Below, piece after piece: positions 39,220-43,581 of a stretch of 64,000 nucleotides of DNA. The notes beneath the pieces are model-generated. The model saw only the letters and a list, made by a program, of their open reading frames with translations. It was not told the origin of the DNA and made no database searches. Made by a program: the position numbers and the translations under genes. Within the stretch, counting starts at the first letter, position 1. Every line of letters starts with the position of its first letter. The stretch is from assembly GCA_041611095.1 (NCBI GenBank), contig JBFINP010000004.1, positions 4,065 through 68,064 of the forward strand, written 5' to 3'. The stretch is from Acidimicrobiia bacterium. GTDB lineage: Bacteria > Actinomycetota > Acidimicrobiia > Spongiisociales > UBA5794.

Positions 39220-42200
39220 GTGGACATCCGCATCCTGGGGCGGCTGGAGGTGTACGACGGCGATCGACCGATCGACGTCAGCCGCCCCATGGAGCGCGCG
39301 CTGCTGACGATCCTCGGCGCGCAGGTGGGAGAGGTCGTGTCCACCGATCGGCTCGTCGACGGCCTGTGGGGCGAGGACCTCCCGGCCACCGCGACCAAGA
39401 CATTGCAGACGTACGTCCATCATCTCCGCTCCCTCCTCCCGCCGGGAGCGATCGCGACGGAGGGCTCGGGCTACCGGCTCGCCGTCGATCCGGCCGACGT
39501 CGACGCTTGTCGCTTCGAGGACACGGTCGAGCGAGGGCGCGCCCGGCTCGACGCCGATCCGGCGGTTGCGGCAGCGCTGCTCGCCGCAGCCCTCGACACA
39601 TGGCGGGGCGAGCCGGCGGCCGATGCGCAGAGGGCAGAATGGCTCCGGCCGGTCCGCGTCAAGCTCGAGGGCATGCGACTTCGTGCGACCACGGACCTGA
39701 TCGACGCACGCATCCGCATGGGGCAGCACCGTGAGGCGATCCCACAGCTTCGCGCCCTCGTGGAGGAGCACCCGCTGCGAGAGGACCTGTGGGGGCTCTT
39801 GATGCTGGCGCTGTACAGATCGGGCCGCCAGGCCGAGGCACTCCGTGCGTTCACTACCGCTCGCAACGGCCTCGCTGAGGAGCTGGGCGTCGAGCCGGGA
39901 CCCGAGCTGCGCCGCCTGGAGGCGCTCATCCTCGCCCAGGATGCCTCGCTCCTGCCGGACCCTCATCCGATCGCCGAGGCGGAGCCTGCTGCGGAGCCCG
40001 TCGTCTCGCAACCGCAAGCGGTGGAGCGACGCTTGACGACACTCGTGCTGGCCCAGCTCGATGGGGCGAAGGAGCTGCGCATCGCCGTCACGCCGCGTAC
40101 TGCCGACAAGATCCTCGAGGAGGCCGTGCGTGTCATCGGATCGGTGGTCGAGTCTCTCGGCGGAACGATCGTGGACCGAGACGAAGCGGGCCTCGTGGGA
40201 TCGTATGGGACCCCGATCGCCCGGGAGGACGATGCGTACCGGGCAGTCCGGGCCGCCCTGAGCGTACGTGCCGAGCTGGCACGGCAGAGCAAGGAGGTCG
40301 AGCGCTCGTGGGGATCCGGGGGCATCGCGTACCGGGTTGCGGTCCTGACCGTCCCCGTCACCACCCCGTTCGGGGCGGATGGCGATGTCGATGACCATCG
40401 TGAAGAGCTCGCCCGTCTCGCCGCAGCGGGCCGGGCCGGCGACGTCGTCGTCGACGACCACACCCACCGGCTCATCCGCGAGCTCTTCTGGTGGGACGAC
40501 GGAGACGGCGACGTAGGACCCGCATGGAGGGTTCGCGGAGTGCGCGGGGAGCCAGGGAAGGCGCGAGTGGGTCGCCGTCTGCGCTCTCCACTGTTCGGCC
40601 GGGAGACCGAGCTGGCGGTAGCCACCGAGGCGCTCCAGGCGCTCGGCAGGGGAGTTGGGGGCGTGCTCGTCGTGTTGGGCGATGCCGGGGTCGGCAAGAC
40701 GCGGCTGCTGGAGGAGATCCGGGAGTTTGCGCTCCAAACCGATGTCCAGTGGATGGTTGGTCACTGCGCGTCGTACGCCGAGGCGATTCCCTACCGGCCG
40801 CTTCGAGACCTCGTACGATCGTGGCTCGACCTCGGCGTCGACGACACCGAGCTCAAGACCAGGGTGACGCTCGCCGAGCGGCTGGACGAGCTCGACCCCC
40901 AGGTCGCGAGGGACCTCTCCCCGTATCTCGGTGGACTCCTCGGCGTGATGCCGGAATCAGGTGAGGCCGGCCGCCTTCAGCTTGCTCCCGAAGCGCTGCA
41001 GTACCGCACCTTCGAGGTCGTCCGCGAGCTGTTCGGTGCGCTGGCGCGACGCCGGCCGCTGGTCGCCGGTATCGAAGACATCCACTGGGCGGACCCCACC
41101 TCACTCCAGCTTCTCGAGCAGATGCTGACTCTCACCGAAACCGAGCCCCTCCTCCTCGTTCTGACGGCCCGTCCGGATCCCGACCACCCGTCACATCGGT
41201 TGCGTGACACGGCGCGTCGTGCCATTCCCCACCTCTTGCGGGAGGTCACGCTCGACGTACTCGGCGACGATGCCCAGCAGGCGATGCTCCAGGCGCTGGT
41301 TGGGGCGGGGACGTTGCCTGCCGCGATGACCCGCAAGCTCCTCAACCTCGCCGAGGGCAACCCCTTCTACCTCGAGGAGCTGATCGGCGCGCTCATCGAT
41401 GAAGGGGCCCTCGTACCGGGCGACCACGGGTGGGAGTTCGACCACGACGTTGCGCTCACTGTTCCCGAGACGGTCGAGAAGGTGGTGCAGGCTCGTATCG
41501 ACCGGCTCCGCGCCCCGGTCCACCATCTGGTGACCTCCGCGTCGGTCCTCGGGCGCCGGTTCGGGCTTCCCCTTCTTCAGGGCGTCGTCGGGGAGGCGGA
41601 GAGCGTCGTGGAAGCCCTCCATGAGCTTCTTCGCCTCGACCTGCTCGTGGAGGCCAGACGCTGGCCGCAGGCCGAGTACGTCTTCAAGCATGCGCTCATC
41701 CAGGAAGCCGCCTATAGAACGCTGCCGGCGGCACGCCGCAACGACCTCCATCGAAGCGCCGCCGAGTGGTTGGAACGCCGCCACCAGAGCAACGAGGACG
41801 AGGTGGCCGGGCTGCTTGCTCGCCACTGGGCCGCCACCGGCGACGAGGTGCGCGCCATCGGTGCCCTGATAACTGCCGGCGACCTGGCTCGACGCGACCA
41901 CGCACTCGACGAGGCGATCGAGCACTACCGCACGTTGCTCCCGATGCTCGAACGCCGGGGCGACCACCAGACGATGGCGCTCGTGCTCCTCAAGCTCGGT
42001 CTCGCCCTCCATACGGCCCTCCGGTTTGCGGAGTCGAATGCCACGTATCAGCGGGCCTTCGAGCTGTGGGAGCCCTCCTCCGGTGTGGAGGCCACCGAAG
42101 TGCTGCGGTTCGCCGGCCCGCCGTTCTACCGACCCGGCGATCCGATCCGCTCGTACTTCCTCCCGGACATGCAGCTACAGATGGCATTGTTCGACCGCCT

Positions 42201-43581
42201 GGTCGAGCGCTGGCCGGACGACACCTTGGTACCTTCGCTCGCAGATCGCTGGGAGGTATCCGACGACGGGCTGCGCTATCGGTTCACCTTGCGCCCCGAC
42301 CTCACTTGGTCTGATGGTCATCCGTTGACGGCCCACGACGCGGCCTACGGCGTGCTGCGAAACCTCGACCCGGCTCGGCCCGGTATCAGCGTCGCGATGC
42401 TCTACGCCATCGAGGGGGCGAAGGAAGCGGTCCTCGAGGGAGCCGGCTTCGATCGCGTCGGGATCGAGGCGATCGACGACCGCACGGTCGAGTTCCGGCT
42501 CGTCGCGCCAGCTCCTTACTTCCTGTCGATGCTCAACAGGCCCGACTGCGGACCCCAGCCGAGGCACGCCATCGAAGCCCGCGGCAACGAGTGGGCTACC
42601 GCAGACAACGAAGTCGTGAGCGGTGCGTTCCACCGTTCCCACCACTCGGACGATCGAGTCGTCCTGGAGCGAAGGCCCGACTACCAGGGTCACCGGACCG
42701 GCAACGTCATGACGGTCGATTGGGCCGTCACGGCCTACGACGCCGCGATCGGTGAGTACCTCGCCGGCCGGGGCGACCTGATGTGGATCTCGGGTGGCTG
42801 GGATGGCGCGGCGGCAAAAACCCTCCCGGCAGGTCAGGTGCACTTCGAGCCACCCGCGGGACTCGTCTACGTGATCTTCGATCACGCCCATCCCCGTGTG
42901 GGCGATGCCCGCTTTCGCCTCGGCCTCGCCCACGCCGTCGATCGGGACGCCCTCCGCCATGTGCTTCCCGAGCACGCATGGCCGGCTCATGGTGGCGTGG
43001 TGCCGCCGGCCCTGGCCGGACACACTCCCGACATCGCTCCGCGCTTCGACCCAGAACGAGGACGCGAGCTCTGCGCGGGAGGAGGCTCGCCGGCGGGCCT
43101 GCGCTTTGCGGTCGTGGACCGCCCGGGGCACTTCTTCATCGATCTGGCACAGGCGGTCGGAGAGATGTGGCGCAGCAACCTCGACGTAGACGTCGCGGTC
43201 GACACGTTCGATCCCGCCACCTACTCCGGTCTGGCGCCGGCGGACCGTCCCGCCCTCTTCATCTCGTCTTGGTATCCCGGGTACACCGACCCGGAGTACT
43301 TCCTTCGCCTCCTCCTTCACAGCGAGGCCGCCGACAACTTCGGTCGCTTCACCCATGAGGCCTTCGACGAGTTGGTCGACAGCGCCGCCCTCGAACGCGA
43401 CGAACGTCGCCGGCTGGCGCTCTTCCACGCTGCCGATCGGATGGCCGTGGCCGAGCAAGTGGCCGTGATACCGCTCGCCTACAACCGGAACATCTCAGTG
43501 CGCTCGCCCGCCGTGAGCGGGTGGTGGGAGTTCGGGAAGTCTTGGTCAAACTTCGCCGACCTCACCATCGAGCGCCACTGA
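39220..43581 (+). CDS. 1453-aa multidomain regulator: OmpR-type wHTH + BTAD (SARP) + cyclase-homology-like + P-loop NTPase + TPR + family-5 solute-binding-protein domain
   Basis: [11 protein letters not shown] start. [49 protein letters not shown]. P-loop [16 protein letters not shown]. C-terminal SBP_bac_5 hallmark [37 protein letters not shown]. Confidence 0.85.
   Translation: [1453 protein letters not shown]

Follow-up and report, generated by a model that had tools for sequence, protein, structure and literature searches.

STAND switches, among them MalT, AfsR, Apaf-1, the NLRs and the bacterial Avs proteins, are central to signalling and immunity, and for most of the bacterial members the inducer and the manner of its reading are unclear. 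Here we describe a gene for a putative regulator of this kind, found on a stretch of 64,000 nucleotides from an Acidimicrobiia bacterium (assembly GCA_041611095.1, contig JBFINP010000004.1, positions 4,065 to 68,064; the whole stretch is called the window below), whose product joins an N-terminal SARP and an AAA_16 NTPase to a complete C-terminal solute-binding protein (SBP) of the SBP_bac_5 family. The closest described systems are the SARP-LAL regulators of Streptomyces (PimR, PteR/FilR, ScnRI, SanG and PolR), to which the window protein was likened on the basis of their description (PMC3367932, PMC10972967): they contain a SARP, a guanylate-cyclase-like region without catalytic signature, an ATPase of the AAA_16/LAL type and helical repeats, and they lack a helix-turn-helix (HTH) of the LuxR kind, as the window protein has no Pfam match to GerE/LuxR. 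Its N-terminal two thirds (the first ~950 residues) is this known plan and the SBP end alone is new. The described SARP-LAL members lack a C-terminal SBP_bac_5 domain, and recent classifications of SARPs know no types beyond the small, the medium, the large and the SARP-LAL (PMC10972967, PMC12224297). The setting differs as well: the known members are pathway-specific regulators inside antibiotic clusters, whereas the window gene, from uncultured Acidimicrobiia-like bacteria, lies among housekeeping genes and is paired with an operon encoding an SCO4226-like and a secreted protein.

AfsR of S. coelicolor carries a homologous SARP domain (residues 5-244 of the window protein match its structure 8hvr with E 6e-38, and EmbR with E 3e-30), followed by a nucleotide-binding oligomerisation module and TPRs, and its C-terminal domains are autoinhibitory (PMC10936776). 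It differs in that the module is of the NB-ARC and not of the AAA_16 type, in that a cyclase-like domain and an SBP are missing, and in its known inputs, which are ATP and Ser/Thr phosphorylation. In MalT and other TPR-sensor STAND proteins (e.g. PH0952) the inducer is received by a C-terminal sensor, the autoinhibition exerted by the arm is relieved and ATP-dependent multimerisation activates transcription (PMC6468293, PMC10427625). Their sensor is, however, the helical repeat itself, to which the window protein adds a separate Venus-flytrap domain, and they end in a LuxR HTH where the window protein begins with a SARP; the MalT-like TPR model PF17874 is matched by many close relatives but not by the window protein. 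Multidomain class III cyclases with an ATPase and TPRs, of the mycobacterial Rv0386 type, end in a LuxR HTH in mycobacteria, where they are not known to end in an SBP. The likeness to these runs through the commonest relatives of the window protein (L010-L083, P0125, P0131 and others), which are cyclase-AAA_16-helical-TPR proteins with intact metal-binding Asp residues and are 45-50% identical to window residues 269-1451; the window protein has a SARP in front and a cyclase domain that is predicted to be catalytically dead. The binding proteins OppA, MppA and DppE share the complete fold and align by sequence from end to end, but the window SBP is covalently attached to a cytoplasmic regulator and has no export signal, no ABC partners and no equivalents of the anchors Asp419 and Arg413. 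Finally, periplasmic-binding-protein folds serve as intracellular effector domains in the LacI/GalR and LysR regulators, in which they are of type I or of a small type II, are joined directly to the HTH and form dimers or tetramers; the large cluster C SBP of the window regulator would instead feed a P-loop oligomerisation switch. The principle of a cytoplasmic effector with this fold is thus old, and a P-loop oligomerisation switch that has a large cluster C SBP for its sensor appears to be undescribed. In the open-access literature we found no paper that treats SBP_bac_5 together with BTAD or AAA_16 and no description of an SBP-type sensor on a STAND protein, in line with the initial annotation of the sequence, which knew of no characterised regulator with this architecture.

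We read the protein as a soluble cytoplasmic activator of the SARP-LAL/STAND type in which the TPR arm is extended by a complete OppA/MppA-like Venus-flytrap SBP that acts as the signal-input module, and give this reading a probability of roughly 0.6. The gene and the parts of its product are:

39220..43581, + strand: the regulator gene as a whole, beginning with GTG and comprising 1453 codons and a stop; it encodes a SARP, a pseudo-cyclase, the AAA_16 NTPase, the helical/TPR arm and SBP_bac_5
39286..39480, + strand: OmpR-type winged-helix DNA-binding domain, residues 23-87 (PF00486, Trans_reg_C, E 5.7e-9, 36.4 bits against a cutoff of 26.2)
39499..39933, + strand: BTAD, residues 94-238 (PF03704, E 4.6e-44, full profile 1-146)
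40015..40560, + strand: degenerate class III cyclase-homology domain, residues ~266-447 (weak PDB cyclase matches, TIGR03903)
40588..41160, + strand: AAA_16 P-loop NTPase, residues 457-647 (PF13191, E 8.7e-25)
40678-40701, + strand: Walker A motif GDAGVGKT of the AAA_16 domain, residues 487-494
41071-41094, + strand: Walker-B-like motif IEDIHWAD of the AAA_16 domain, residues 618-625
41170..42069, + strand: helical/winged-helix-like middle region (residues 651-880) followed by the TPR arm (881-950), from conservation, TPR_12 and, for the TPR, structure prediction
42142..43578, + strand: complete two-lobed SBP_bac_5 domain (cluster C, OppA/MppA-like), residues ~975-1453 (PF00496, PDB, structure prediction and Foldseek)

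The initial annotation had reported one uninterrupted open reading frame (ORF) of 1453 codons with six parts. The frame is present as described and all the motifs quoted for it occur in the translation; the order of the parts (winged HTH, BTAD, cyclase-like segment, AAA_16, helical/TPR region, SBP_bac_5) was borne out by the Pfam and PDB matches, with PF00486, PF03704, PF13191 and PF00496 in the expected sequence and TPR_12 weak. NCBIfam models matched the protein in part: AfsR (residues 4-260), the kinase/cyclase fusion model TIGR03903 (266-919) and OppA-type binding proteins (975-1435). A long frame of this composition might be an artefact of assembly or sequencing that joins the gene of a SARP-LAL regulator to that of a separate secreted SBP, for which the only conceivable support is that the sources name relatives 'ABC transporter substrate-binding protein'. 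The coding signature is, however, uniform across the junction, as the GC content by codon position stays steady along 39220..43581 (third positions 0.74-0.89, second positions 0.39-0.56). The junction of TPR and SBP can be aligned without gaps across eleven independent full-length homologue clusters and is the same in six metagenome-assembled genomes (MAGs), the NTPase-TPR-SBP fusion occurs in more than 70 further genomes, AlphaFold2 (AF2) models the junction with a per-residue confidence (pLDDT) of 83-90, and no signal peptide or lipobox precedes the SBP. Neither the codon-position GC nor the gapless junction gave any sign of a frameshift within the frame, and on the strength of the coding signature and the many independent full-length homologues the artefact was rejected; it is effectively refuted already.

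The same analysis bears on where the SBP resides. The 1453-residue protein contains no transmembrane or signal-like segment, the highest 19-residue Kyte-Doolittle mean being 1.58 and lying within a TPR helix, so that, together with the steady GC signature, neither a frameshift nor a signal peptide nor a membrane span is indicated; a signal peptide or lipobox in front of the SBP part, the absence of which had been pointed out, is indeed not found in the translation. Since the SBP is in addition preceded by about 970 residues of DNA-binding and NTPase domains, a cytoplasmic location follows. ABC transporter components are missing as well: Pfam annotation of the about 60 ORFs in the window gave no ABC_tran or BPD_transp domain, no ORF of the window combines a Walker A motif with an LSGGQ-type signature in a motif scan, and there are none among the called genes at the homologue loci L001-L003. 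The earlier statement that the window holds no ABC permease or ATPase genes therefore stands, and with no export signal and no ABC partner genes in the window a role as transport receptor was rejected, as the initial annotation had done.

The SBP part is a complete binding protein, because it aligns to mature MppA and OppA from chain residue ~27 to ~498. PF00496 covers residues 1003-1371 (E 2.6e-55, profile positions 2-366 of 368) and the last 493 residues match MppA (E 5.8e-43) and OppA (E 3e-42) in the PDB from end to end of the mature chains. The full-length SBP_bac_5 domain that had been claimed for the last ~480 residues is thus there; its proposed start at nt ~42110 needs a slight correction, as the fold begins nearer residue ~975 (nt ~42140). 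AF2 was run on residues 881-1453 with a 57-sequence alignment and yielded four TPR helices (pLDDT 92-98) followed by the SBP, with a mean pLDDT of 93.4 and a predicted TM-score (pTM) of 0.91. In Foldseek the modelled SBP was closest to DppE (TM-score 0.89), liganded MppA (3o9p, 0.88) and OppA (0.87), within a range of 0.85-0.89 at 21-26% identity, and open, unliganded MppA superposed less well (0.71). The mean pairwise identity within the family is 58% for the SBP (29% invariant columns), 57% for the NTPase and 67% for the TPR, so that the constraint on the SBP is at least that on the catalytic core of the switch. As judged from this NTPase-like conservation and from the predicted complete fold, the SBP is functional and not vestigial.

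The binding site offers some indication of the ligand. In OppA, established structural work has shown that Arg413 and Asp419, within the motif R-A-G-W-C-A-D-Y-N-E-P, bind the peptide termini. The window protein has WYPGYTDP (nt 43270-43293) in place of W-C-A-D-Y-N-E-P; Arg413 is replaced by Ile and Asp419 by Gly, and this glycine (Gly1354) is invariant in the clade of the window protein. As the Asp anchors the alpha-amino group of the peptide in OppA, MppA and DppA, a standard oligopeptide whose N-terminus is free is an improbable ligand. Among the more distant fused representatives, 70 of about 84 keep the Asp and 7 have Gly, which makes it probable that the fused module bound peptides in its ancestral form and that the clade of the window protein has moved to another ligand specificity. 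Loss of the Asp as a general hallmark of cytoplasmic fused SBPs was considered and rejected on these same counts, the Gly being confined to this clade.

The replaced anchors also lend themselves to a different explanation, in which the SBP fold binds no small molecule and is a docking module, either protein-protein or intramolecular (for example an autoinhibitory cap or an oligomerisation platform), while the switch is driven by the ATP/ADP level or by phosphorylation, as proposed for PolY and AfsR. The exchange of the ligand-anchoring Asp and Arg for Gly and Ile throughout the clade would fit this, as would the closed-like conformation that AF2 gives without ligand, although the latter may be a bias of the model. 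Against it, both lobes and the hinge are present at full length under strong constraint, many cluster C SBPs bind ligands although they lack this Asp (binders of sialic acid, opines and glutathione appear on the Foldseek list), and the Asp retained by most distant fused relatives (70 D against 7 G) points to a true ligand binder as the ancestral module. We therefore consider the docking explanation unlikely and keep to the SBP as an input module, the cleft of which would bind a ligand.

The protein has several sequence features of a STAND protein: a P-loop NTPase with Walker A and Walker B motifs, an N-terminal effector (the SARP) and a C-terminal arm of TPRs with the SBP. G487, A489, G490, G492, K493, E619 and D620 are invariant across the family alignment, and the middle region and the TPR arm are conserved at 60-67% identity, with TPR_12 matching residues 885-950 at E 3e-4, under the Pfam cutoff. 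Many close relatives of ~900 residues match only the C-terminal half of AAA_16 and miss the P-loop (P0282, P0289, P0351 and P0357, of 848-960 residues, some on contigs of 0.5-2.7 Mb); in P0282 a LysR-type HTH_1 takes the place of the P-loop half. These may be gene calls cut short, genes that are split, or true variants lacking a P-loop.

The architecture is not rare, and the window protein belongs to a large clade found in uncultured Actinomycetota. When 5.8 billion proteins were searched for homologues, eleven further clusters (P0002-P0012) had 52-62% identity over about 100% of the length and the same Pfam architecture; they stem from metagenome bins of Actinomycetota and Acidimicrobiia. An exhaustive HMMER search with the SBP alone against 1.84 billion representatives gave 1123 matches at E<=1e-30, and most of the best 150 of these were proteins of 1,050-1,650 residues whose very C-terminus is the SBP. 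Profiles cut from the family alignment served to class 149 of the closest representatives: the same middle/TPR module lies directly upstream of the SBP in about 106 of them, and the N-terminal parts were a SARP (about 30), a cyclase domain (17) or unidentified (23), with two SBPs in some proteins and four in one. Tandem copies of SBP_bac_5, two or four in number, were seen in P0121 (2843 residues), P0170 (2002 residues), P0129 (2704 residues), P0128, P0132, P0136 and P0138, with P0121 consisting of SARP-NTPase-TPR and then four SBPs. A word-indexed search with TPR plus SBP recovered 317 clusters at E<=1e-30, most of which the sources label 'oligopeptide transport system / ABC transporter substrate-binding protein'. 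A scan of one genome per species brought up at least 576 loci with a relation to the query, every one of them in a MAG; of its two search patterns one falls outside the SBP, so that SBP-less relatives are counted too. The best 80 loci comprised six full-length SARP forms (L004-L009, mainly Acidimicrobiia) and 66 cyclase-NTPase-middle-TPR-SBP proteins of ~1,190 residues from Thermoleophilia, Gaiellaceae and other Actinomycetota; the metal-binding Asp residues are intact in this form, which makes up 66 of 79 genome loci. As SARP, cyclase or other N-termini are found on a shared core, one SBP-NTPase-TPR input seems to be paired with alternative outputs.

The output of the window protein is a SARP by sequence, with an N-terminal OmpR-type winged HTH and a BTAD directly after it, and the cyclase-like segment behind it has decayed. 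The initial annotation was right to see cyclase homology here, as class III cyclases in the PDB match residues ~270-430, albeit weakly (E 7e-4 to 0.07); the PF00211 match that it had expected is absent from the 1453-residue protein at E<=1 in Pfam, the domain is degenerate and both metal-binding Asp positions are substituted (Q279 and A323), with the transition-state Asn aligned to Glu. It is also the least conserved domain of the family (38% mean pairwise identity, 8% invariant columns). In a comparison of 212 aligned cyclase-like domains, the first and second metal Asp were Asp in 0/21 and 0/21 of the SARP+SBP members versus 83/88 and 85/88 of the SARP-less cyclase+SBP proteins, and SARP-cyclase-NTPase-TPR proteins without SBP showed intermediate retention. 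An active adenylate or guanylate cyclase was consequently rejected, the Asp pair being lost throughout the SARP+SBP subfamily. In the simplest reading of these sequences, a SARP was gained by, or joined through recombination to, a ligand-gated cyclase architecture; the output would then have moved from cyclic AMP (cAMP) to DNA binding, with the cyclase fold surviving in a structural role.

The genomic neighbourhoods of the two forms differ in kind. All ten SARP-form loci (nine independent contigs) have a divergent gene pair next to the regulator, versus 0/74 SARP-less loci, and the conserved neighbours of the SARP-less cyclase-SBP genes are only unrelated housekeeping genes, at most in 12/74 loci. 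The strict synteny of the SARP form is what is expected of a local DNA target and the lack of conserved neighbours in the SARP-less form is what is expected of a diffusible nucleotide (cAMP) output; as a clue to the ligand the SARP-less neighbourhoods, with nothing but housekeeping genes in up to 12 of the 74 loci, were rejected. Ten of the 74 SARP-less loci have, ~1.6 kb upstream of the cyclase-SBP gene, a LarA-like gene (with the N-terminal domain of lactate racemase, from a family of nickel-pincer enzymes; e.g. L058 1047-2867); this proximity is probably due to common descent of the genomes, not to a link in function.

The divergent intergenic region between regulator and gene pair measures 109 bp in the window and 105-131 bp across the loci, and contains the following elements:

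39159..39198, + strand: four heptamer direct repeats with an 11-bp period, CGGCTGG (39159-65), CGGCTGA (39170-76), GGGTAGA (39181-87) and CGGCAGG (39192-98); putative SARP operator, consensus CGGCWGR
39208..39213, + strand: TACGGT, a hexamer of the TANNNT type that resembles a -10 element and precedes the GTG start by 6 nt

In silico the repeats have the make-up of a SARP operator, i.e. heptamer direct repeats with 4-bp spacers at or close to the -35 region. With transcription starting at 39220 the two proximal 11-bp units would lie at -39 to -18, and the afs box of AfsR consists of two 11-bp direct repeats at -40 to -19 (PMC10936776). In the SARP-LAL group the operators are built of CGGCA(A/G)G-like heptamers with 4-bp spacers, and the footprinted one of PimR, TGGCAAG-n4-CGGCAGG-n4-CGGCAAG, is placed in the intergenic region shared by the regulator gene and its divergent target (PMC3367932). 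One window heptamer is identical to the central repeat of PimR and the others show 2-3 differing positions, and homologous loci have CGGTAAG and CGGTAGA. This afs-box-like position and the PimR-like heptamers in a shared intergenic region suggest positive autoregulation as well as control of the divergent operon. A TANNNT hexamer is found 6-7 nt ahead of the regulator start codon in 9/9 independent loci, a spacing that is the geometry of leaderless actinobacterial mRNAs.

Taken with the general logic of STAND proteins, i.e. autoinhibition, an inducer and ATP-driven multimerisation (PMC6468293, PMC10936776), these elements suggest a sequence of events. At rest the TPR-SBP unit would keep the AAA_16 NTPase closed, monomeric and autoinhibited, as in other STAND proteins. 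Binding of a cytoplasmic small molecule in the SBP cleft would close the lobes, upon which the attached TPR arm might shift and release the autoinhibition, and the NTPase domains would oligomerise in the ATP-bound state, with the catalytically dead cyclase-homology domain probably contributing only a dimerisation or spacer element. By analogy with the described systems, the clustered SARP domains would then occupy the four CGGCWGR heptamers cooperatively and recruit RNA polymerase, such that the regulator would activate its own gene and also, whether directly or, like PimR, from afar, the divergent SCO4226-like/secreted operon. The proposal of the initial annotation that the SBP is the cytoplasmic sensor of a STAND-like switch gains support from the conservation of the SBP, from the recurrence of NTPase-TPR-SBP under interchangeable outputs and from the pTM of 0.91 for the TPR-SBP model, and we adopt it in this conditional form.

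Several points weigh against this reading or loosen its support. The positions that anchor peptides in OppA are replaced, as described, and the notion that TPR and SBP form one rigid unit, which the high pTM suggests, draws on indirect support. The NTPase core has no close solved relative by PDB sequence search, which gave only P-loop-level matches to ClpA, and residues 651-880, which are conserved and helical by homology, form a putative helical and winged-helix domain (HD/WHD). The 11-bp periodicity of the operator is visible as a lag-11 self-identity of 0.415 over nine loci (0.277+-0.020 when shuffled, z 6.9, 0/2000 shuffles, the maximum over lags 4-20), but these loci are related and the statistic overstates their independence; in L001 and L009 the periodicity is weak (0.27-0.29). 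Elsewhere in the 64 kb the three-box heptamer pattern, which was derived from the window site itself, is absent even when two mismatches are allowed (0 expected). The leaderless transcript with its start site at ~39220 is judged from the conserved hexamer, a consensus sigma-70 promoter/terminator scan of the intergenic region gave no hit at all, the divergent operon included, and the host organisms of all family loci are uncultured MAGs.

The divergent operon consists of two genes on the opposite strand:

38859..39110, - strand: partner gene 1, 83-residue SCO4226-like ferredoxin-fold protein (PF14026, E 1.5e-23)
38347..38862, - strand: partner gene 2, 171-residue secreted protein with signal peptide (alignments), overlapping partner gene 1 by 4 bp

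The SCO4226-like protein (83-84 residues) is 73-87% identical between loci, more conserved than the regulator, with H8, H24, D44, C52, H66 and H70 invariant. Its strict co-occurrence brings in a sub-case of the sensor model, namely that the SBP senses a metal or metal chelate, e.g. chelator-bound nickel as members of the NikA type do, and that the regulon serves metal homeostasis. In favour of this, the partner belongs to the SCO4226 nickel-binding family (PF14026 as above; NCBIfam NF033706, E 3e-22), expression of SCO4226 is induced by nickel in S. coelicolor (PMC4186839), SBP family 5 includes NikA, to which the N-terminal part of the SBP has weak matches, and the SBP has invariant His and Cys residues (H1116, H1268, and C1110 in most members). 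The similarity to NikA, however, extends over no more than about 70 residues at the N-terminus (E ~1e-6), versus full-length matches of 1e-43 to MppA/OppA, the partner scores 78 bits against the 125-bit equivalog cutoff of NF033706, and SCO4226 is itself a weak nickel binder with a dissociation constant of 10 uM and surface sites (PMC4186839). Furthermore, if the alignment is read with an offset of one, the partner has lost two (Ser46 to Ala, His76 to Ile) of the three residues that make up the sole conserved nickel site of SCO4226, and with these missing the label 'nickel-binding' may not fit it. Nickel sensing, as read from the SCO4226-like neighbour, was for these reasons (a sub-cutoff score, two of three Ni-1 ligands gone, marginal similarity to NikA) demoted to a minor rival that we consider quite improbable, and the sensor reading is kept without a metal as its preferred ligand.

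The secreted partner has a conserved core (GGMGxHY...PEALVYE...LHAWVW) with two conserved Cys residues and measures 171-246 residues across the loci. It has no match in Pfam, NCBIfam or PDB sequences; AF2 models it with a pLDDT of 86.5 overall and >=92 for the mature part, and since Foldseek gave no PDB match for this model (best E 1.4, TM-score <0.2) its fold may be undescribed. The family comprises 358 clusters of 'hypothetical proteins' of about 160-175 residues, none with a Pfam domain, in which Cys70 and Cys170 and the motifs GGMGxHY and LHAWxW are invariant. Homologues lie at L001 9000-9551, L002 4217-4954 and L003 8908-9642, and the extra N-terminal segment of the longer L002 and L003 versions looks SLH-like.

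Beyond this locus, we see about even odds that the family forms a large and so far unrecognised class of cytoplasmic 'Venus-flytrap-gated' STAND switches of soil Actinomycetota and neighbouring phyla, in which an OppA-like SBP (one, two or four copies) would detect an intracellular metabolite or peptide and drive, via the TPR arm and AAA_16, either cAMP synthesis or, where cyclase activity was lost and a SARP gained, the direct transcription of its own dedicated operon. If true, the input to STAND proteins would here follow a new logic, and periplasmic-binding-protein folds would have been recruited for gene control in the cytoplasm a second time, independently of the first. The sensor/NTPase core with an intact cyclase in most lineages, and with a SARP and a decayed cyclase here, amounts to a natural output-swapping experiment, and hundreds of database entries named 'ABC transporter substrate-binding protein' are misannotated cytoplasmic regulators or cyclases. 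As the input domain is a very well understood ligand-binding fold, discovery of the ligand and dissection of a flytrap-driven release of autoinhibition are approachable, and a sensor-plus-SARP module with a defined heptamer operator could possibly serve as a ligand-inducible expression switch in Actinobacteria.

The chromosomal position of the module varies. In L002 (477-19621) and L003 (5987-14359) the whole module is found inside the nuo operon (NADH dehydrogenase), between nuoD and nuoE, and in the window it lies among unrelated housekeeping genes. The window is a core actinobacterial segment with Pup ligases, proteasome, PafBC, TatAC, RecN, CTP synthase, Cmk, Der, LytB and malic enzyme, and its about 60 annotated ORFs include no polyketide synthase, nonribosomal peptide synthetase or other biosynthetic core gene. 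A complete Pup-proteasome locus occupies 633-7528, with two genes of the Pup-ligase family (dop/pafA type), prcB/prcA and two WYL/WCX regulators resembling PafB/PafC; next come tatA, tatC and, at about 8820-11342, a DSHCT helicase similar to HelY. Such synteny is usual in the actinobacterial core and agrees with the assignment of the window to the Actinomycetota.

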